NCBI GenBank assembly: GCA_029762535.1
Contig: JARVGK010000047.1
Span: 1-14,896, forward strand
Length of the DNA stretch: 14,896 nucleotides
From: Thermoplasmatota archaeon
GTDB lineage: Archaea; Thermoplasmatota; Penumbrarchaeia; Penumbrarchaeales; Penumbrarchaeaceae
Reading direction: 5' to 3'
The position numbers and the translations under genes are program-made. Shown here piece by piece: positions 1 through 14,148 of the stretch. The notes under the pieces are model-generated. The model worked only from the letters and a program-made list of their open reading frames with translations, was not told the DNA's origin and searched no databases. Position 1 is the first letter of the stretch. Every line of letters begins with the position of its first letter.

Positions 1-5
1 CGAAG

Positions 6-40
6 GGTTTATAGGGCTCATTACATTCACCCTATAAACC
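6..40. promoter_or_regulatory. Perfect 11-bp inverted repeat containing a TATA box on each strand; + strand copy is the probable tRNA-Pro promoter
   Basis: GGTTTATAGGG (6-16) / 13 nt / CCCTATAAACC (30-40). TTTATA at 8-13 follows purine-rich GAAGGG (BRE-like) and lies about 36 nt before the tRNA. Confidence 0.65.
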
Positions 41-49
41 GAGCATTTT

Positions 50-124
50 GGGCCCGTAGGGTAGCTTGGTCCATCCTTGTGCGTTCGGGACGCATAGACT
101 CCGGTTCAAATCCGGGCGGGCCCA
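50..124 (+). tRNA. tRNA-Pro (anticodon CGG), no intron, CCA not encoded
   Basis: Acceptor stem GGGCCCG (50-56)/CGGGCCC (117-123), discriminator A124; anticodon arm GTGCG-TTCGGGA-CGCAT with CGG at 86-88; T arm with GGTTCAAATCC; 75 nt. Confidence 0.97.
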
Positions 125-526
125 CTCGTAACATTTTTTCCTTACTAAGAAGAGTGAGCCCGCACGTTTCAAGCATATTCTCATTGTTGGTATGGAAAAT
201 TGCGTCAGCAATTTTTCAAGGATCCGGGCGGGCCCACTCGATTATCATTCGTGTGTATTTATTGAGTGGGATCCGCCCGAGTATTTGATTAGAGTACGTT
301 GACTTTGAAAATCCGAAGGATTTTTAATCGGTCCGGGCGGGCCCACTCGTAACATTTTTTCCTTACTAAGAAGAGTGAGCCCGCACGTTTCAAGCATATT
401 CTCATTGTTGGTATGGAAAATTGCGTCAGCAATTTTTCAAGGATCCGGGCGGGCCCACTCGATCATCAACAGTGTATATTTATAGAGTGGGATCCGCCCG
501 ATTCAAGAGTGTTCTCATTTTTTTTT
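111..526 (+). repeat. tRNA-3'-end-linked tandem array: four copies of TCCGGGCGGGCCCACTCG, units A-B-A-B'
   Basis: Identical 18-mer at 111-128, 223-240, 332-349 and 444-461 (periods 112, 109, 112). 111-242 equals 332-463 exactly (132 bp). Each copy is followed 24 nt after CACTC by an imperfect inverted copy (152-163, 264-279, 373-384, 485-500). Confidence 0.95.
518..526 (+). terminator. Oligo-T tract, candidate archaeal terminator for the tRNA-Pro/array transcript
   Basis: T9 run at the end of the last repeat unit; shorter T6 runs also occur at 134-139 and 355-360. Confidence 0.5.
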
Positions 527-575
527 ATGAAAGTTATATTCATTCTATGTTGTGAGCTTGTAGCTCATTAGGGTC

Positions 576-2813
576 TCATTTACGGATCTTTCTCCCATAG
601 AAGACGGAATAGATCGCCGACAGAAGATGATGATCAACGTCAACGAAGGGCATCATCTCCCTGACAAGGTCCCTGTTTGCGCGGGTCAGCTCCATTATCT
701 TCTGAAAATTATCAGTGGCCTTCTGGATCTGCCCCTCCCTAGCGTTCTTCATGGACTCCGAAACCGTCTCTTTGAGCTGAAGTGGGAACTCCTCGTTCGC
801 AAGAACCTCTTCAAGGAACTTCCCGTAGGCATCGGAGGATCCTTTATGGTCCCCAAGCTTGTACATCAAGGATGCCCGATACGTAAGGAAATAATATCTC
901 ATCCTCTGGTCGATATCTCCCGTGAAACCGTCCAGGATCGATAGGGCCTCCGCGGGTCCCTTCACCCTCTCCACGGCCCATGGCATCCAGAAACGCGCAG
1001 CTATCCTGCAGGCGGATGCAAGATCGCCTCGAGGTTCGGATCCCGAGACCATGTTCAGATATCTTATCGACCTCTCGTGCTCTCCTCTGTGTATGTGGTT
1101 GAATGCGTGATAGAAGGACTGCAGGATCGATCTATCGTCCTTCTTTTCCCTTAGAGGAACGTAATACTTTGAGAACTCCGGAAGCAGCTCGCCAGATGGT
1201 ATCTGAAGGATGGCCCTGACAAGCATATCGAGCGCCCTTTCGTGATCCCCGCAGAGTAAAAGATGTGACATCGCCTCGGAGACATACATCGGGGTAGGTC
1301 CAAGCCCTTTCGCGTCCTCCAGCGACAGGGGCGAGGGGGGCACGTCATCGCCGATATCCTGATAGAAACCGCTGGACTGGAGTTTCTCCAAGAAAACCCC
1401 AGCGATGTCCCTGTGCGATCCCGAACGCTCCTTAGCGGCCATATTGGATACGGATTGGTCCCTGATCAGATCGTGAACGATATATCCTGAAGGTGTGTGG
1501 AATATGAGCCTGTTGTCCATGAGATGCGACAGCGTCCCCTCATCGACCCCGGCCACACCGAGTAACTCCTCGTCACCCAACTGAAGCCTGCAAAGGGATA
1601 TCACGCTAAGTGCCTTGAGTTCCATTTCGCTCAATCTAGAGAAGATCTCCTGCCTGAGGAAATCATCGAAGTCGGATATGTCCGCTCCGTCACCCTCCTT
1701 CTCCACCAGAGCAAGGGCCAGAGGGTGCCCTCCGATCTTCTCCACGATGGCATCGACGGAATCCGGAGAAAATCCCCTATTCAGCAGGAAGGTCCTTGAT
1801 ACGTCCGGCTCGAAACCCAAAAGCTCCAGCTCCCCGACCATCCCGGATATCCTCACATCCCGTATGTCGTAGAAACCCGCCCTGGTCCTTGACATGACTA
1901 CAAGATCGACCCCCTTCATCGCCATGAGCCTCTCTTTGAAAGAAGAAAGGAACATAAGGACCTCTCTGGGGGCTCTGTGAAGGTCATCGAATATGATGAG
2001 AAGGGGTATGTCCCTGGGTATATTCTTGAACAGATCGCAGAAGGCCTCGATATCCATGCCGCCTTCCTCGATATAATCCTTCAACTGGGACCAACCGATA
2101 AGGCATAGGAACTCCGAAAGCTCTGTTAGAAGGTAGTTGAGGGAGGTCCATTCCTTGATGTCCAGGTAGAAAACGTTCATCTCCGTCCCAAAATCCTGTG
2201 AGATCTTCCAGGCCAGGGTGGTCTTGCCCACCCCGGCTATCCCGTAGATAACCGTGACCTTCCTCTTTGGGCTGCGAATGGCCGATGAGATCTCCTCCAT
2301 CTCCCTCTCCCTGTCGAGGAACAGGGCCGGAGGATTGAGGGTCTGAGTGTATGAGGGTGCAAGGTCCTCCCGGCGGACCTGCCTGTCCTTTCTGAGGTCC
2401 AACTTTCTGACCAAAAGCGCCTTTGAAAGCTCCGACAGCTTGATCGCCTTCATGGAAAGGAGATCGTGTATGGTCCTTTTCTTCCTGCCCGATTCGTCCT
2501 CGACATCTATCTCTATCGCCCCGATACGTTCGAGCATTTCCCGGGCCTTTAGCACGCCTGTGTCCGTAAGCGCGTATACCTTTCTCCTTCTGCTCAGCCC
2601 CTCTATGTGGGCGAGGTATTCCTCCACCCATCTCTTCTCGATCAATCCCCCGACAGCTCTGGGAATGGCCGATCGGATGATCTCCAGCCTGTCCGCGATC
2701 CCCTCCTGAGTGATATCTGGCGGGGCTTGAAGCTCGCCTCTGTAACGCGTGTAATCGAGAAGAAGTAGCAGGATCTTGTCGCTTACGGTTATCCGGACGT
2801 TCTTCTTATCCAA
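576..2813 (-). CDS. Winged-HTH + STAND (NB-ARC/AP-ATPase-like) P-loop NTPase + helical TPR-like C-terminus, 745 aa; probable signal-transducing transcription regulator
   Basis: N-terminal wHTH-like segment (ITQEGIADRLEIIRSAIPRAVGGL...RRRKVYALTDTG); FLDRERE pre-NTPase motif; Walker A GIAGVGKT; Walker B LIIFDD; sensor-1-like VVMSR; GGHPLAL (GxP) and VHDLIRD (MHD-like) STAND motifs; TTG start with GGAGG about 8 nt upstream. Confidence 0.88.
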   Translation of the reverse strand: MDKKNVRITVSDKILLLLLDYTRYRGELQAPPDITQEGIADRLEIIRSAIPRAVGGLIEKRWVEEYLAHIEGLSRRRKVYALTDTGVLKAREMLERIGAIEIDVEDESGRKKRTIHDLLSMKAIKLSELSKALLVRKLDLRKDRQVRREDLAPSYTQTLNPPALFLDREREMEEISSAIRSPKRKVTVIYGIAGVGKTTLAWKISQDFGTEMNVFYLDIKEWTSLNYLLTELSEFLCLIGWSQLKDYIEEGGMDIEAFCDLFKNIPRDIPLLIIFDDLHRAPREVLMFLSSFKERLMAMKGVDLVVMSRTRAGFYDIRDVRISGMVGELELLGFEPDVSRTFLLNRGFSPDSVDAIVEKIGGHPLALALVEKEGDGADISDFDDFLRQEIFSRLSEMELKALSVISLCRLQLGDEELLGVAGVDEGTLSHLMDNRLIFHTPSGYIVHDLIRDQSVSNMAAKERSGSHRDIAGVFLEKLQSSGFYQDIGDDVPPSPLSLEDAKGLGPTPMYVSEAMSHLLLCGDHERALDMLVRAILQIPSGELLPEFSKYYVPLREKKDDRSILQSFYHAFNHIHRGEHERSIRYLNMVSGSEPRGDLASACRIAARFWMPWAVERVKGPAEALSILDGFTGDIDQRMRYYFLTYRASLMYKLGDHKGSSDAYGKFLEEVLANEEFPLQLKETVSESMKNAREGQIQKATDNFQKIMELTRANRDLVREMMPFVDVDHHLLSAIYSVFYGRKIRK

Positions 2814-6542: not shown

Positions 6543-7889
6543 ATGGAAAGCGTCTGCCCCCTTGATTTCAGATACGGCAGGGAAGAGATGAAGAGGGTCC
6601 TGAGCCACGAGAGCAGGGTAAGGAGATGCCTCGACGTGGAGGCATCCCTCGCCAGGGCTCTCGCGGCCGTCGGCAGGATCCCCCCCGAGGCGGCCAGGGA
6701 GATAACCCTCAAGGCGAAACTGGAATACGTAACCATAGAGAAGGTAAATGAGGTGGAGGCACGGATCAGGCACGACGTGATGGCGATAGTCAAGGTGCTC
6801 TCCGACGCCTGCGAGGGAGATGCGGGAAAGTACGTGCATCTGGGCGCCACGTCGTACGATATCGTCGATACGGCCCTCGCCCTTCAGATGAAGGATGCCC
6901 TTGAGATCATCCGATCGGACCTCAAGGCCCTCGAGCGTGCCCTGATAGAGAAGGCCTCGGAGAACCGGGACCTTGTTATGGTTGGAAGGACACACGGCCA
7001 GTTCGCGATCCCGCTCACGCTCGGGTTCAAGTTCGCCGTATGGCTGGCGGAGGTACACAGGCACATAATGAGGATCGAGGAGTGCAGGAAGCGCGTGTTG
7101 GTCGGAAAGGTCTCCGGAGCCGTGGGGACCGGAGCTGCCCTCGGTGAGGAATCGTTCGAGGTGGAGAGGCTGGTGATGGAGGACCTGGGCCTACTTGCGG
7201 AGGAGGGTGCCACGCAGATAGTGCAGCGGGACCGGCAGATCGAGATACTCTGCCATCTCGCGAACCTCTCGGTCACGGTAGAGAAGATGTCCACGGAGAT
7301 AAGGACCCTGCAGAGGCCGGAGATCGGGGAGCTCATGGAGTCCTTCGACAGCGAGAGGCAGGTCGGGTCATCGACGATGTCGCACAAGAGGAACCCCATC
7401 ACCTGCGAGAACGTCACGGGGTTGGCGAGGGTGCTTCGATCATTCCTCACCGCATCGTTCGAAGGGGGGGTCCAGTGGAACGAGAGGGACCTGTCGAATT
7501 CCTCCGCTGAGAGGTTCATCCTCCCGCATATGCTCGTTCTCGCCGACGAGATACTCGTGAAGATCACTTCGGTCATGGAAAACCTGGTCATAGACCGCGA
7601 GGCCATAGAAAGGAACCTGAATAATGCCGGGTCGGTCATCATGGCCGAGAGCGTCATCATGGCCCTGGTGTCAAAGGGAATGGGCCGCCAGGAGGCTCAC
7701 GAGATCACTAGGCAGGCGGCGATGGAACATTACCGGGGAATGGCCTACAAGGATGCCCTGCTCAAGGACGGGCGTGTGATGTCCCTGTTGAGACCAGAGG
7801 AGCTCGAGAGATCTCTTACTCCCTCGTATTACACTGGAACGGCCCGGGATAGGGTGGATAGGATCATAGCTTCGGTGAGATCACCATAG
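6543..7889 (+). CDS. purB: Adenylosuccinate lyase
   Basis: RHDV, HLGATSYDIVDT, GRTHGQ, SGAVGT, and fumarase-family signature GSSTMSHKRNP; GGAGG at 6531-6535 and TTAATATA at 6501-6508 upstream. Confidence 0.97.
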   Translation: MESVCPLDFRYGREEMKRVLSHESRVRRCLDVEASLARALAAVGRIPPEAAREITLKAKLEYVTIEKVNEVEARIRHDVMAIVKVLSDACEGDAGKYVHLGATSYDIVDTALALQMKDALEIIRSDLKALERALIEKASENRDLVMVGRTHGQFAIPLTLGFKFAVWLAEVHRHIMRIEECRKRVLVGKVSGAVGTGAALGEESFEVERLVMEDLGLLAEEGATQIVQRDRQIEILCHLANLSVTVEKMSTEIRTLQRPEIGELMESFDSERQVGSSTMSHKRNPITCENVTGLARVLRSFLTASFEGGVQWNERDLSNSSAERFILPHMLVLADEILVKITSVMENLVIDREAIERNLNNAGSVIMAESVIMALVSKGMGRQEAHEITRQAAMEHYRGMAYKDALLKDGRVMSLLRPEELERSLTPSYYTGTARDRVDRIIASVRSP

Positions 7890-10724
7890 AGGGCTAGTGG
7901 GTGATACTTCCCTGTTGCGCCACTGGTCCGAAGAGGTATGGGTCCCGTCCTCTCTGGAGAAAGAATGAATGCTCGGCGTCCGGCCCGGGTTCGAGGATAT
8001 CAGGTGCTGATACAGGACGACTTCGCCCTCTCCTGTGAGGCTGGCGGAAGGATACGCTGTCTCCAGGGCAACATCGGATCCCGAAGGCCGATCGCTCCTT
8101 GGTCCCGGGTCCACCCCCCAGATAGTAGATACGGTCATCTGCATCATCCAGGGTTCTCGCGAGAGGCCCGCCAATGCCTCCTTCGGTCCGCTAACCCAGA
8201 GGGTTCGGGTAAGGACACCGCCGCCCTCTCCCTCCCATCTCGAGGTAAGCCCTGTCCAATGGCCTTCTCCGGACAGGGATAGGAGCGTGCTCAGTACTTC
8301 GGAGATCGATAAAGATCCCCCTTCCCCGATCCTCTCCATCATCTTCTCCTCGATCGCGTCCCTTTCCGATACCTTGGACCCTCTTGCAACGAAGGAGATG
8401 TAGGATACGCCTCCTCCCATGGAGGGGTAGCTCTCGAACGGGAAGCCTCCGCTCCCGGCGTGAAGGATCTCCATCGAGGGGGACTCGATCTCCCAGCTGC
8501 CCTTGAGCGCAAGGTCCAGTAGGGCCTCGGTGGGTTGGGCGGGCCTGCCCGATCCCTCCCGGATCTGCTCCGTTCCCGAGTCCCAGGTCACAACAAATGT
8601 CCCGTCTTCGAGGTCCAGATCTATCCTGGACCCGGGATCGGTCATAACGTGGGCCTTGAAGTCTATAGGCGGGGACATCAGACCGTATATGGACAACACC
8701 GAGACGTAGCCTGGCGATGAGGCGGATATATCCAGCCTGTCGTTGAACTGCGTGTATGATAGAGTCAGGACAAGGTTGTCGGTGTGTATCGGCTCGAGCA
8801 GCGGTATCAGCGCCCCTCTCTGCAAGTATATGTTCATCAGATTGATCATGTAGAGTATCTGTTCCGAGGTCAGTGTGGATCTCCATGTCTCGAGCCCGCG
8901 AAGCGTTTGTATGGCGGCTATCTGCACCTCGGCCCTTGTCCATGTATCTTGAGGGTCAGAACCGGCCCGTTGAAGGACTCGTCCCAGAGCGGTGAGTGGG
9001 GCGAACGCGCCCCTGAAGGATTGGAACGCGTACTGCTCGAAGAACTCCGTGGCGTTCGCCTCGGGAGGTATGATGTATCCTGATATCTCCTCCGTGCTGA
9101 GGTTCACGGTCTTGTAGATCATGAACCAAGGGATGTTATCGTTCGCGGGATGGGTATCGAACCAGGAGGTCACTCTCACAGGGAATGTGAAATTTATGAT
9201 ATTTTCGACCCCCTCATGGCCGGGGACGCTGCCGAGGTATCCCTTCGCCGATCCCCTGAGAGGTACGGAGCCCTCGATCATGAGGTTCCACTCCATCCTG
9301 AAATCGTGCGCGGGCGGTTTTTCGGGAGGGACTATCCCCCCGCATCTCGTCTCGGGATCCTCCGCTCGGGTCAAGGGGAAATCGATTGTTGTGTTGACCA
9401 GAGATTCCGGGGTCCGATCCAGGTCCACTTCCGTGTACCATGCCCGAACGCTGTCGATCCCTTCGATCCTGAAGTCCCTGGCGGAGACCATGTAATCGGT
9501 CTTGAGATCGATGTTTGGCTCGAAGGGCAACGTTTTGTTGGCGTTCATCGACGGGACGTTCAATCCTCCGTCCTCGGGAAGAGAGACCACGGTCCTCATC
9601 GATGAGGCGTCGCGTAGGTCCTGATAATGCCTTGCGTTGACGAGCATGGATTCCTCCAATGCTCCCTTTGTGTCGAACATGTCGAACCTGGGAGAGGCCG
9701 GGGTGTTGGCGCCGCTCGTGCTGAAGAGCCTGTCGAGGTACAGGTACCTGGCGAACAGGTCTGCCGGATCCACATGCCCTCTCTGAAGGGCCACATCGAA
9801 TAGTCCTGATGCGCTCCTCCTGCCGGAGGCGGGCCCCGCCAACTGCGAATATAGCTCGTAATTGGTCCGCTCGGATTCGCTCCAGAACCTGAACCCGGTC
9901 GGGTTCATCATGAGCGACGGAGAGGCCCTTGTGAAATATGCATCGATAGAGGACATCAGGCCCTCCGGAACCTGGCCTGTTAACGAGGACAGCCTTATGG
10001 CGAGAGCGATGTTCAGGGCGAGCTCCACATCCCCCTCGTTGAGGACGTTGAAATGGCTCTGTCTGTTCTGCCATCCTAACCTGTTCTCCGTCCGGACACG
10101 CGCCAGCGTGTTGAGCATGTACTCCACGTCCCTGGCGAGGCCGCCTCCTTCTTCCATCTCATCTTCGGCGATCCTCATGAGCGCAAGTACCGCTCTGTTG
10201 GGATCAACTATCTCGCTGGTGAAGGAAATGTTCGTGAATATGCGTTCGCCTCTTCCTACAGGGTCGAGCCGCATCTGTGATATCACCTGAGCGCGCACCA
10301 CAGGGATCACGCCCCTTCCCCCCGATCTGCCGTAGAGCATGCTGTTGGGCCCGTAGCTGCCGTCGGGGAGAAGTATCGCCGGCGGGGGATCGGATACCGA
10401 TGAAGGCATGTCGTAACGCTCAATGGACACCTCAACATCGAAGAGGCTAACGGAGTACCCCTCTACCCCGACGATCGATAGAGTGGCGATGTCCGGCAGC
10501 GAGCGGGAGATCTCCCTCTCGATCTCCGTATCGGGTCGATCCCTCATCTCAAGGAGAAGGCCGGTGGTAAGGGAGCTGAGCTCGCCTGCGAGCTGTACGG
10601 TGTCCGGTTCATTTAACTGGGATTCGCTTGTATCATATGCTGTGTATATCATGATCCCGGAGAGTACGATCGCCAGGACGAGGGAGGCCGCCACCGCTTC
10701 CTTGGACAGGTCCTTGCCGCTCAT
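7881..10724 (-). CDS. Large hypothetical exported/N-terminally anchored protein, about 947 aa
   Basis: Long ORF; start set at 10724 from an ATGA overlap with the upstream stop and a GGAGG site; single N-terminal hydrophobic helix after SKEA (VAASLVLAIVLSGIMIY); no catalytic motif recognised. Confidence 0.8.
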   Translation of the reverse strand: MSGKDLSKEAVAASLVLAIVLSGIMIYTAYDTSESQLNEPDTVQLAGELSSLTTGLLLEMRDRPDTEIEREISRSLPDIATLSIVGVEGYSVSLFDVEVSIERYDMPSSVSDPPPAILLPDGSYGPNSMLYGRSGGRGVIPVVRAQVISQMRLDPVGRGERIFTNISFTSEIVDPNRAVLALMRIAEDEMEEGGGLARDVEYMLNTLARVRTENRLGWQNRQSHFNVLNEGDVELALNIALAIRLSSLTGQVPEGLMSSIDAYFTRASPSLMMNPTGFRFWSESERTNYELYSQLAGPASGRRSASGLFDVALQRGHVDPADLFARYLYLDRLFSTSGANTPASPRFDMFDTKGALEESMLVNARHYQDLRDASSMRTVVSLPEDGGLNVPSMNANKTLPFEPNIDLKTDYMVSARDFRIEGIDSVRAWYTEVDLDRTPESLVNTTIDFPLTRAEDPETRCGGIVPPEKPPAHDFRMEWNLMIEGSVPLRGSAKGYLGSVPGHEGVENIINFTFPVRVTSWFDTHPANDNIPWFMIYKTVNLSTEEISGYIIPPEANATEFFEQYAFQSFRGAFAPLTALGRVLQRAGSDPQDTWTRAEVQIAAIQTLRGLETWRSTLTSEQILYMINLMNIYLQRGALIPLLEPIHTDNLVLTLSYTQFNDRLDISASSPGYVSVLSIYGLMSPPIDFKAHVMTDPGSRIDLDLEDGTFVVTWDSGTEQIREGSGRPAQPTEALLDLALKGSWEIESPSMEILHAGSGGFPFESYPSMGGGVSYISFVARGSKVSERDAIEEKMMERIGEGGSLSISEVLSTLLSLSGEGHWTGLTSRWEGEGGGVLTRTLWVSGPKEALAGLSREPWMMQMTVSTIWGVDPGPRSDRPSGSDVALETAYPSASLTGEGEVVLYQHLISSNPGRTPSIHSFSREDGTHTSSDQWRNREVSPTSPLW

Positions 10725-11227
10725 TCCACATCCTCCCATACCGTTATAGATATCCCGACCATCCCTTCAGGGGTGCTGCGGGAGAGGCGATGCTCCGTCA
10801 TGTACGAGGTCTCGTTGCCTTTGCTCAGGACATCCTTTTCCCCAAGTCCCGGGGAGGATGCGCTCAGCCTGAGATCGCTTCCGTAGAGGAATGTCAGGAC
10901 CGCGTCCATCTCGGAGATAGGGCCATCCTCACTGATCAGTTCGCCCTTCAGAATGAGGTAAAGGCAATCGGCGACCGGAAGGTTCAGATACGTTCCGTTC
11001 TCGGTCTCTGCCGAGCTGATCGTTATCGATAGGAAGACGGCCATGCGATCATCGATCTCCTCCTTTGGAGGCGCCTCGCCCCCCTGGATGATATGAGGTG
11101 AGACCGCGCTTATGATCCCGGCCGATGCCAGAACGATCGATATGATCACAGCGGCCTTGAAGGTGATGGGAATTTGCCTTTTCTTGTCCCCCTTTTCCCT
11201 AAGGTCATCGTATTCCCTATCCCTCAC
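10721..11227 (-). CDS. Hypothetical N-terminally anchored protein, 168 aa (possibly minor-pilin-like)
   Basis: GTG start preceded by a strong SD GGAGGTGA; charged leader ending DKKRQ, then hydrophobic helix; ends in beta-strand-like ISITVWE. Confidence 0.78.
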   Translation of the reverse strand: MRDREYDDLREKGDKKRQIPITFKAAVIISIVLASAGIISAVSPHIIQGGEAPPKEEIDDRMAVFLSITISSAETENGTYLNLPVADCLYLILKGELISEDGPISEMDAVLTFLYGSDLRLSASSPGLGEKDVLSKGNETSYMTEHRLSRSTPEGMVGISITVWEDVE

Positions 11228-11675
11228 GGACGGTCACCTCCAGGATCGCTGCGGAGCGCCTGCCGTCGCCGTGGTCAACGGTGATGTGGTTCGAAGAGGA
11301 GCGCGAGAGCCCTCCGGAAGAATCGAATACGGACCTCGAGGGGTGATAGAGATCGAATCGAACCCCGTTGTGCAGTTCTATCGTGACCTTGATGATGTCA
11401 TCCTCCGATGCGAGCTGTTCCAGATCGGGGTCCGCCATCAGCGAGGGCAGGTACACGGTGTTCTCGCTCGAACCGTATGTTATAAGGAGGTTGTCAGTAT
11501 GGTCCTGTGATCCGGAGCTCAATCTCTGGATCGAGTCCTGCCTGTCGTTGATGTAGATGGAGTAACCGATCCCCGCCAGCAGTATGAATGCTCCGGCCAG
11601 GATCACCAGCGAAGTTCTTAGGGGGCCGCCTGCGGATAGATCAGGCGGGTCCGGATGGCCTTGCCTTACCTCCAT
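11217..11675 (-). CDS. Hypothetical N-terminally anchored protein, about 152 aa (possibly minor-pilin-like)
   Basis: Start reassigned to ATG 11675 (MEVRQG...), because the longer ORF would overlap the divergent gene and promoters; hydrophobic helix LVILAGAFILLAGIGYSIYI; ends AILEVTVREG; 3' end overlaps the next start by 11 nt. Confidence 0.75.
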   Translation of the reverse strand: MEVRQGHPDPPDLSAGGPLRTSLVILAGAFILLAGIGYSIYINDRQDSIQRLSSGSQDHTDNLLITYGSSENTVYLPSLMADPDLEQLASEDDIIKVTIELHNGVRFDLYHPSRSVFDSSGGLSRSSSNHITVDHGDGRRSAAILEVTVREG

Positions 11676-11799
11676 GAGATTTCCATCCTTTATGGTGATA
11701 TCTACTTTTCGGATAAATAATAAATCTTTTGGTTCAGGACAGTATCGTGAGCGGGTGTGGACCAAAAGATTTATACTATTTGAAAGGGCATCTTGCGGT
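11676..11799. promoter_or_regulatory. Divergent promoter region
   Basis: AT-rich gap; + strand AAAAGA-TTTATA (TATA 11770-11775) 25 nt before ATG 11800; - strand TTTATTATTTAT at about 11713-11724, upstream of ATG 11675. Confidence 0.6.
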
Positions 11800-14148
11800 A
11801 TGCGATCGAACCTCGTCTCGGCCTTGATGGTTTTGCTGATTTTATCCGGAACTTCGCTGTTGTCTTCGGAAGCGGCCCCGACCAGGGGTGAGGAGACCGG
11901 TTTCTTCTCCAGCGTCCAGATCTTTCGATCCGCCAGATCGCTATCGGGCGGGATCGGTATCGGGGACGTTGACGACGACGGAAGGAACGAGGTGGTGATA
12001 TGCGACTTCGAGGGGAACGTGGTCATGCTCAAGGAGACAGCTCCCGGGGAGTTCCAGTCCACCAAGATATGGGAGGATCCCAGAAAGGGCGCATCCGTCC
12101 AGGGTTTGCTCGATCTGTATGTGGGGAACGTGCTACTCGACAGGCCAGGGGTCGAGATCCTCGTAGGTGGTTACTCAAGGAACCTCACCGTCATCTATCA
12201 TACCGGGTCCGGTTTCGAATCCAGTGTGATATACGTCAGCCCCTATCAGATATTCAACATCGCCGTCGGCGAGTTCGATCCCGCATCTCCCGGGGAGGAG
12301 ATCTTCCTTGCGTCTTTTGAGATGGGGGCGACGGACGCATCGGCCGACAGGATGCTCAGGATGCTGAGCCGATCCGGCACGGAGTTCGTATCTAGGGAGT
12401 TCGAGCTGCCCGACACCCCCAAAGCGGTGGAGGTGGCGGATATCGATCCGTCCGTTCCCGGGACGGAGGTATGGGTCACGACCTCCGGCCGAAGGGAGAT
12501 CGACGGCGGCCCCGAGTCCGGTCTCTACCAGGTGACCCTCGACGGGAACGTGGTGGAGAGGTACAAGGACCCCGAGAGGCTCATAGCCAACGTCAAGGCC
12601 GGGGACCTCTGGTCCGGAAACCCCGGCAACGAGCTCATAACCGTCGATTTCGGCGGATGGTGCAAGGTCATGTGGATAAAGGACGGCGAGCTCGAGGTCC
12701 AGGAGATATTCAGGGCCACATCAAAGACCGGGGACACCGCGCTTCTGGAGGGGCTGATTGTCGGGGATTTCAACCCGAGGCTTCCCGGGGTGGAGGCCCT
12801 GACCACGGGATATTACAACGACGTGACCCAGATCGCCGAGGTCGGCGGAGAGATGATCGACGATCTGATATGGGCCACCGATGTGGAGGACCCTTTTCTG
12901 GAGCTTGCGGGACTCGCCATCGGGGATTTCTCCGAGATCAGGCCGGGCAGCGAGATAGCCCTGGCCTCCCGCCAGGGCTGGGTGCAGCTCATATATTTCG
13001 AGCTCGACGGGATCGACCTCGACGCGGACGATGAGGTGGTAGAGATGCCCGACGGTTCTACCAAGGAGTTCTACGTGACCGTTGTTCCGAGAGGTTATAT
13101 CCGGGGTTCGGTCTCTTTCAGCGTCGAGGGCGGGGAAGGGCTCGAGTTCACTTTTCCCCCGAACGTCATGATCACATCCCACGATCCGTTCCAGGTTCTG
13201 GTGGAGGTCGAGGCCGATTTCGGTGACGGCGAGGCAAGGTCCGTCCCTTTCAGGCTGCTTGCCACCTCGGGAGCGTACAGCGCTGAAATGGATATGATGG
13301 TGGATATCAAGCTCCCGGGGAGCATCTCTTTGGGAACGTCATACATCGTCATGTATCCGGAACTGGGGATCTCCCGCGAGGTTGAGGTCACGCTTACCGG
13401 ACTGGACGAGGTGGAGCTTTCGATCGAGGCCCCGGAGGGTCTGACCGCGGCATCCTCCCAGGTGTTGAAGAGGGGGGTGCCTGATAAATTGATAGTCGTT
13501 GCGGAAAAGGATGCGCAGCCGGGAACCTACCCCGTGACAGTGAGCGGCGCCGTTTCCGGTGAGGTCCTTGCGCAGAGCGTTCTCCTGGTCAAGGTGACGG
13601 GTCTTTCCGAGGATGTGAGCGTAAAGATCGAGATGGTCTCCCAGGACAGGTACCGGGTCACTTCAGATTACAAGGGCGGGAGGCTCGATGTCCCGGTCGA
13701 TGTGGCGGTGTTCGTCGGCAAGAACATGCAGGATACCAGGTCCGTGCTGCTGGACCCGCTCGTCCCCGTGGTGTTCGAGTTCGATTACCGTGGGAAGACC
13801 GATCAGATGGTGAAGGTGACCTTTTCCGGTCCTTCGGGAGAGGTGGGATATTCAGTTGAGCCGGGGGTGGTATACGCCACCGGCGGCGAAAGGGGGATCC
13901 CGGTGGGGATCCTGATCCTGGTCATAGTTGTGATCATTATCGTCGCGGTGTTGATATTCTACGGATTGTCGAGGATGAAGCCCGCTTCCGGGGAGGATGA
14001 GAGCCTGATCGGGATCGGCAGGCCCACGAGGTATGGAAGCGGCAGGACGGAGCCCGAGCGAAGAGGACCTGCCCGAGATCGGTATGCTGGCCGGTCCGGA
14101 GAGGAAGCGAGAGGGGGGCGGGGGAGGGATCCCTTTAAAAAGGCTTAA
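11800..14148 (+). CDS. Cell-surface protein: signal peptide, seven FG-GAP/VCBS-like repeats (beta-propeller), Ig-like stalk, TM helix, Arg/Gly-rich tail; about 782 aa
   Basis: Start 11800 gives signal peptide MRSNLVSALMVLLILSGTSLLSSEA. Repeats: GDVDDDGRNEVV, GNVLLDRPGVEIL, GEFDPASPGEEIF, ADIDPSVPGTEVW, GDLWSGNPGNELI, GDFNPRLPGVEAL, GDFSEIRPGSEIA. Ig-like motif AQPGTYPVTVSG; TM GILILVIVVIIIVAVLIFYGL. Confidence 0.87.
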   Translation: MRSNLVSALMVLLILSGTSLLSSEAAPTRGEETGFFSSVQIFRSARSLSGGIGIGDVDDDGRNEVVICDFEGNVVMLKETAPGEFQSTKIWEDPRKGASVQGLLDLYVGNVLLDRPGVEILVGGYSRNLTVIYHTGSGFESSVIYVSPYQIFNIAVGEFDPASPGEEIFLASFEMGATDASADRMLRMLSRSGTEFVSREFELPDTPKAVEVADIDPSVPGTEVWVTTSGRREIDGGPESGLYQVTLDGNVVERYKDPERLIANVKAGDLWSGNPGNELITVDFGGWCKVMWIKDGELEVQEIFRATSKTGDTALLEGLIVGDFNPRLPGVEALTTGYYNDVTQIAEVGGEMIDDLIWATDVEDPFLELAGLAIGDFSEIRPGSEIALASRQGWVQLIYFELDGIDLDADDEVVEMPDGSTKEFYVTVVPRGYIRGSVSFSVEGGEGLEFTFPPNVMITSHDPFQVLVEVEADFGDGEARSVPFRLLATSGAYSAEMDMMVDIKLPGSISLGTSYIVMYPELGISREVEVTLTGLDEVELSIEAPEGLTAASSQVLKRGVPDKLIVVAEKDAQPGTYPVTVSGAVSGEVLAQSVLLVKVTGLSEDVSVKIEMVSQDRYRVTSDYKGGRLDVPVDVAVFVGKNMQDTRSVLLDPLVPVVFEFDYRGKTDQMVKVTFSGPSGEVGYSVEPGVVYATGGERGIPVGILILVIVVIIIVAVLIFYGLSRMKPASGEDESLIGIGRPTRYGSGRTEPERRGPARDRYAGRSGEEARGGRGRDPFKKA

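Follow-up and report, generated by a model that had tools for sequence, protein, structure and literature searches.

What are the repeated units that follow directly on a proline tRNA gene in the genome of this uncultured Thermoplasmatota archaeon, and how did they come to lie there? The window (the whole stretch of 14,896 nucleotides that was analysed) is the start of contig C44 of genome G000, and tRNA-Pro(CGG) was located on its + strand at positions 50-124/125 (ARAGORN; Rfam tRNA, 50.5 bits). The last 14 nt of this gene, together with the following CTCG, form an 18-mer at 111-128, exact + strand repeats of which start at 223, 332 and 444, giving four copies in total at successive spacings of 112, 109 and 112 nt. 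Under a dinucleotide shuffle 0.03 matches to the 18-mer were expected, and none of 200 shuffles reached four. Positions 111-280 and 332-501, which are offset by 221, share 96% identity, and the units therefore follow the order A-B-A-B'; the two A units (A1 and A2) show no differences in sequence, while B and B' are about 90% alike across their first 58 nt and diverge beyond. The exact repeats, the shuffling and the 96% internal identity thus confirmed the original prediction of a four-copy 18-mer array with these periods and in this order. The features of the locus are as follows.

4-40, + strand: promoter-like cassette of tRNA-Pro, with a TATA-like hexamer (8-13) within an 11-nt perfect inverted repeat (6-16 and 30-40)
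50-124, + strand: tRNA-Pro(CGG), whose last 14 nt (111-124) are the first tail copy
111-222, + strand: unit A1, with tail copy plus CTCG (111-128), AT-rich loop, imperfect mirror copy (152-166) and terminator-like hairpin (194-217)
223-331, + strand: unit B, with tail copy (223-240), loop, mirror copy (264-279) and hairpin (305-327)
332-443, + strand: unit A2, of the same sequence as A1, with mirror copy (373-387) and hairpin (415-438)
444-526, + strand: unit B', with tail copy (444-461), mirror copy (485-500) and an A-like tail ending in T9 (518-526)
576-2813, - strand: convergent gene for a STAND/AAA-type ATPase (Pfam ATPase_2/AAA_16)

Each unit is made up, in this order, of a tail copy with a short trailer, an AT-rich loop of about 23 nt, a mirror copy, a spacer of about 30 nt and a terminator-like hairpin, after which the next tail begins. 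The mirror copies are imperfect and cover both tail and trailer, that of unit B having a 1x2 internal loop at the base before CCCA. Within the sequence read for unit B' (444-526) a terminal tail copy was absent; its B-type fold-back head is followed by a stretch 71% like the A tail and then by T9, and it has derived bases in common with the distal unit of a further array on contig C7 (see below). B' and T9 had been taken for the original trailer of the tRNA gene, which does not agree with the fold-back head, the shared derived bases and the A-like tail, and B' is, to judge from its sequence, a truncated unit. The promoter-like cassette at 4-40 is context and lies outside the array; it matches stretches before tRNA genes on contigs C5, C15, C36 and C14, indicating that the 5' sides of tRNA genes carry shared modules too. 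The units have no ORF, and the genes of the window include no integrase and no cas gene, as had been stated from the outset, and no recombinase. The flank with the ATPase gene (576-2813) served as a marker for finding the syntenic locus in another genus. Two further large ORFs in the window, at 7881-10739 (- strand, 952 aa) and 11584-14148 (+ strand, 854 aa), gave no or only faint Pfam matches.

An assembly artefact is unlikely, as diverged copies lie in the same order on a second contig (C7:38485-38948) and a third array starts at the end of contig C58. The C7 array, A-B-A-B, is 97% identical to that of the window over 391 nt, and its unit 2 is 100% identical to unit B of the window. At the C58 end, unit A begins behind tRNA-Val(CAC) (98.7% identical over 77 nt), the tail of which is the same as that of tRNA-Pro(CGG) and the body different. 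The flanks of the C44, C7 and C58 loci are unrelated. One base is common to both A copies on C44 and different in the three A copies of C7 and C58, which points to homogenisation of copies within a locus. Sequence comparison thus demonstrates that the 221-bp A+B pair has been copied as a block and duplicated within arrays.

The same build recurs throughout G000. Copies of a tRNA's own 13-nt tail were found downstream of 19 of its 39 tRNAs (41 copies with up to two mismatches allowed, nearly all of them exact), and foreign tails were found in no case. The units fall into several families of about 107-190 nt, in all of which the local tail or T-arm is present as a mirror copy. Masked stretches (N runs) cover a tRNA at C7:38950-39030, behind which the C7 array lies, and also occur inside arrays on C21, C33, C47 and C69; the masked tRNA of C7 may, by elimination, be tRNA-Pro(TGG), which ARAGORN finds nowhere else in G000. 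A lone B-type fold-back head resembling B' follows tRNA-Ile(GAT) (C7:41673-41781, tail end GGCCCA), again with no tail copy downstream of it.

A unit-specific segment, X, starts directly after the discriminator base, and the mirror copy covers the tail and X, placing the junction of tRNA and unit inside a long hairpin in which tail and X are paired with the mirror copy. Among 43 tail copies there were 35 distinct X hexamers, and X was complementary to its own mirror at a mean of 3.9 of 6 bases, compared with 2.1 for shuffled partners (maximum 2.8 in 1000 shuffles). At three loci where successive trailers differ (L019, L023 and L048), the partner of each mirror copy is the tail and X within that unit rather than the tail that comes next, and the conserved structure is hence a fold-back that spans the junction of tail and unit. 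The covariation of X and mirror could have its source in conversion between the hairpin arms instead of selection. Fold-back stems reach 17-32 bp; just before CCCA there is recurrently either an unpaired base or an insert of up to 25 nt on one side only, and in many genera the mirror copy starts 43-47 nt past the tail. The second hairpin is not peculiar to the units: hairpins of its generic type are common in intergenic clusters of G000. Such clusters, dense and consisting of short hairpins of the form GGAAAAT-loop-ATTTTCC, were observed away from tRNA genes at C25:47700-48900 and at C31:5400-5800 and 15600-16000. A bulge-helix-bulge splicing motif was considered for the fold-back and rejected, the internal loop being of 1x2 nt or a long one-sided insert, and the only matches of the array to tRNA-like or other known RNA families in Rfam were the tRNA itself and a permuted tmRNA at chance level.

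Fold-backs and hairpins can be read as RNA structure, a reading that is compatible with a mobile origin of the units. Transcription from the tRNA promoter would then run on through the units, and tRNA end-processing enzymes would cut the transcript at the tail copies into tRNA-sized small RNAs, as happens with RtT and RrA/B/F of E. coli; we consider this possible, though rather unlikely. The comparison with enterobacterial tRNA-linked repeats, already drawn in the original prediction, is apt. Both the E. coli repeats (the 178-bp RtT of tyrT-tyrV, RF00391, and rrA/rrB/rrF) and the units described here are gene-less tandem units directly behind a tRNA, each ending in an exact copy of the tRNA 3' end (18-19 nt in E. 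coli, 14+4 nt here). By definition, tRNA-linked repeats lie downstream of a tRNA or rRNA gene and end in a copy of its 3' end (PMC8144298), and this is what is found in the window. RtT and the units also have in common that part of the tail recurs inside the unit as a mirror copy, which was read directly in the E. coli sequence and appears as the closing stem in the Rfam model. The array is an archaeal variant of tRNA-linked repeats. It differs from the E. coli repeats in its archaeal host and in the presence of several unrelated unit families at about half of the tRNAs, and from RtT in that the mirror copy also covers the unit-specific trailer and has the upstream tail as its pairing partner. 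Nor is there similarity to RtT in sequence or covariance model: RF00391 gave no match in window positions 1-1000 (E up to 10) or at the C7 locus, with four RtT matches of 133-138 bits in E. coli as positive control.

The E. coli repeats are co-transcribed with their tRNA and processed, the tail copy being the processing signal (PMC8144298), and pairing of mirror copy and tail closes the structure in the RtT model; both points speak for processed RNA here as well. So does the folding of 60 unit interiors, which was on average stronger in the sense (-37.1 kcal/mol) than in the antisense direction (-35.0 kcal/mol), with the sense strand better in 37 and the antisense strand in 23 units (Wilcoxon p = 0.004, on units that are not independent) and with more G-U pairs in sense. 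The C44 array as a whole folds at -161.6 in sense and -142.5 in antisense, and it ends in T9. This bias towards the sense strand is weak evidence, compatible with terminator-like T runs, and may merely mirror a skew of T over A; the 29 first hairpins, moreover, were without strand bias (-31.5 versus -30.8). The register that the data support pairs the mirror copy with the upstream tail, which in the first unit would unfold the real tRNA, and the loops after the tail are often T-rich, so that archaeal RNA polymerase may stop before the mirror copy is reached. Against processed RNA also count the lack of any Rfam match for the units and the finding that unit content is not conserved at syntenic loci.

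As had been proposed together with the original prediction, the tRNA-Pro loci of related genomes were compared; comparable units were present, and their number and content varied. Pairs of tails 130-310 nt apart were found in most genera of the host's family and in the sister family and were absent from the rest of the class (37 genomes examined), and the units behind tRNA-Pro and tRNA-Val of the relatives share the build and mostly not the sequence. In a scan of the genome collection all archaeal matches came from Thermoplasmatota or Methanomassiliicoccales MAGs; many bacterial matches were dismissed as chance matches of a G+C-rich pattern. Three genomes of one genus allowed gain to be followed. 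The locus in G011 consists of the tRNA, one unit, a tail and a trailer; G016 has the same distal unit and trailer with an extra unit adjoining the tRNA, and in G023 the unit of G011 is preceded by a unit of another family, again adjoining the tRNA. These arrangements demonstrate what is, from sequence, polar gain, new units being added next to the tRNA body. The units of G011 and G023 are 98.9% identical over 174 nt, compared with 72% over 917 nt for the syntenic upstream flank, which demonstrates apparently recent spread of units between genomes, as the arrays on C44, C7 and C58 do for spread between tRNA loci with the same tail. At the G023 locus that is syntenic with the window (tRNA-Pro and a homologous ATPase gene, flank 71% identical over 294 nt) a single unrelated unit was found, suggesting turnover of units at this locus. 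Scans with the hairpin pattern in viral contigs, and with the motifs of units A and B in metagenomes from which near-identical records may be missing, returned zero matches, no free, circular, virus- or plasmid-borne copies of units were found, and literature searches found no description of such archaeal units.

The explanation that we prefer, and to which we give an about even chance of being right, is that the array is one locus of gene-less fold-back units bearing tRNA tails, small mobile DNA modules that settle at tRNA 3' ends in the host's archaeal family by att-like entry. The gain and turnover of units in relatives support the proposal that these are minimal non-autonomous insertion modules at the tRNA 3' end. 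The alternative proposal, stacked integration scars or decay, fits poorly with a conserved, covarying fold-back build that recurs intact at other loci and in other genomes. The original prediction had not noted that every unit holds a mirrored tail, nor that such units occur across the genome and the lineage.

Two loci bear on where the exchange would take place. In genome G002, tRNA-Val(TAC) ends in a tail of its own that forms pairs with the 5' end of the same tRNA, while the mirror copy of the first unit behind it and two downstream tails are of the proline type; these units are 88-93% identical to the tRNA-Pro units of the same genome. The foreign, proline-type tails indicate that the downstream tails arrived with the units, and the pattern places the exchange to the right of the differing bases, within the shared end of the tail. 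The G002 case thus favours conservative recombination of an att-like or short-homology kind at the tail end over target-site duplication, as far as the sequences tell. Within this array (L163, G002 C187:13880-14600) one tail copy has lost part of its sequence and is joined to the unit that follows, a sign of internal deletions between units. On contig C18 of G000, behind tRNA-Val(GAC), a unit with a mirror of the Val(TAC) type lies between local Val(GAC) tails and shares its body with the Val(TAC) locus. This counts against simple reciprocal recombination and needs a later conversion of the direct copies, which also fits the 41:0 rule of local tails in G000. We envisage that units would enter through a conservative, att-like exchange inside the final bases of the tail, catalysed by an enzyme encoded outside the units, and that the spare tail borne by the unit would keep the tRNA intact. 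Tail copies would later be homogenised to the local tRNA, the mirror copy more slowly, and unequal recombination from one tail copy to another would lengthen or shorten the arrays. Transcripts started at the tRNA promoter may also extend into the units and be processed like the E. coli repeats.

In a rival mechanism a casposase- or Cas1-like enzyme, or another transposase, would make staggered cuts and at each event copy the 14-18-nt tail by fill-in next to the tRNA as 'leader', in the manner of CRISPR spacer uptake. A precedent exists in the same phylum, where the casposon of Aciduliprofundum boonei is inserted at the end of tRNA-Pro, with the T-loop as leader and a 15-bp duplication that allows tandem leader-proximal insertions (PMC5137440); new units are here likewise added next to the tRNA, and each of the 41 tail copies in G000 corresponds to its local tRNA. 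With this casposon the units share the phylum, the tRNA species, the T-loop region beside the duplicated segment and the predicted tandem leader-proximal insertion, but neither a casposase or polymerase B context nor terminal inverted repeats are present, the repeat is in another register, and only 5 bp of the casposon duplication lie within the tRNA (PMC5137440). The foreign proline-type tails behind tRNA-Val(TAC) in G002 contradict insertion by cut and fill, the sole Cas1 gene sits in an ordinary CRISPR locus, and the sequence left of the repeat still resembles the tRNA imperfectly, with T-loop-like bases that differ from the local tRNA (L020). We regard this mechanism as very improbable. 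The Cas1 gene, the only one in G000, lies beside a CRISPR array with a 37-nt repeat (C5:60000-67000, L037), which together with the foreign tails of G002 led us to reject insertion by a casposon or Cas1; it is contained in a 555-aa ORF that is possibly a fusion. The array of the window was itself rejected as a CRISPR array, since its 'spacers' are repeated units (A occurs twice, and units recur at other loci) and its repeat is a tRNA tail. A MITE or transposon with target-site duplication was discarded as well, the unit ends not being inverted repeats and the tails in G002 being of foreign type.

No recombinase was found in or beside the arrays examined. G000, which is 93% complete, encodes only a XerA-like tyrosine recombinase on contig C25, an integrase fragment, a serine recombinase and one IS110 transposase, the only full tyrosine recombinase having 266 aa with SAM_4 and Phage_integrase domains. 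Single-strand transposition of the IS200/IS605 kind was rejected because this 93% complete genome has no Y1 transposase, and no link to the units was found for the IS110 transposase and an idea of bridge RNA. The integrase fragment and the serine recombinase sit in ordinary islands without fold-backs. At C53:7237-8098, tRNA-Arg(TCT) is followed 200 nt downstream by an intron-bearing tRNA-like gene, probably tRNA-Trp with C/D-box-like motifs in the intron, and then by the integrase fragment, which is cut off where the contig ends; the whole resembles an ordinary integrated element. Behind tRNA-Cys (C58:77500-78732, L178) lies what is probably a small island, with a very AT-rich stretch, a small ORF, a 287-aa serine recombinase (Resolvase and Recombinase) and a 755-aa ORF without a Pfam match. 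The tRNA-Trp and tRNA-Cys islands were rejected as parents of the units, having recombinases and lacking fold-backs.

tRNA 3' ends are classical integration sites, and with ordinary recombinase-bearing islands behind tRNA-Trp and tRNA-Cys in this very genome the units could be debris, that is, left-over att sites and the degraded relics of larger viruses or plasmids once integrated at the tRNA, with no function or mobility of their own. The near-constant geometry of the units, down to the mirror start 43-47 nt past the tail in many genera, makes this highly doubtful, as do the covarying fold-backs, the units that are identical at several loci and near-identical across genomes, and the absence of gene remnants from the units and of fold-backs from the ordinary islands.

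Mobile fold-back units also have a parallel in integrative elements that target tRNA genes and in the non-autonomous derivatives of such elements. As with tyrosine-integrase elements at the T-loop and 3' end, direct repeats of the tRNA 3' end flank the insert and the tRNA is intact; the downstream copy can be borne by the element, as in G002, and arrays arise through repeated use of the tRNA-proximal site. Unlike those elements, the units measure 107-190 bp and have no gene and no integrase inside or nearby, and their repeat is of only 13-20 nt. A double-stranded circle of 110 bp is physically implausible as an intermediate, and a mirror copy of the site at a distance of 30-60 nt, which a classical attP does not have, is a part whose role a classical integrase site does not account for. 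Imperfect inverted repeats whose structure is kept while the sequence covaries are found in integron attC sites and the attP(+) of CTX phage, which also have in common with the units a conserved unpaired position (here the G before CCCA), a variable loop length, polar growth of arrays and a hairpin that mimics a double-stranded target. The likeness is one of analogy only: there is no integron integrase and no cargo gene, long direct repeats lie between the units, and the strand bias is weak. In a more specific reading, improbable in our judgement, the mirror copy would be a built-in guide, units homing to tRNA tails by base pairing and a host recombinase inserting them, as at attC and CTX-phage sites. 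Either a single-stranded unit would fold so that the duplex of mirror and tail imitates the end of a tRNA gene, or the mirror copy would pair with the exposed tail of a transcribed tRNA gene. If this were true, the units and the RtT-type repeats of E. coli would form a widespread class of elements without cargo and without recombinase.

E. coli has been known to carry tRNA-linked repeats since 1978, and to our knowledge their origin and most of their roles have been without an explanation. In the archaeal lineage described here there are many such units, of several families, behind about half of the tRNA genes. For annotation this means that arrays of this kind interrupt assemblies at tRNA genes and can be misread as CRISPR-like features or att scars. 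With young copies, sister loci that are filled to different degrees and the foreign tails of G002, this lineage makes the origin and mechanism of such repeats testable by comparative genomics and simple biochemistry.
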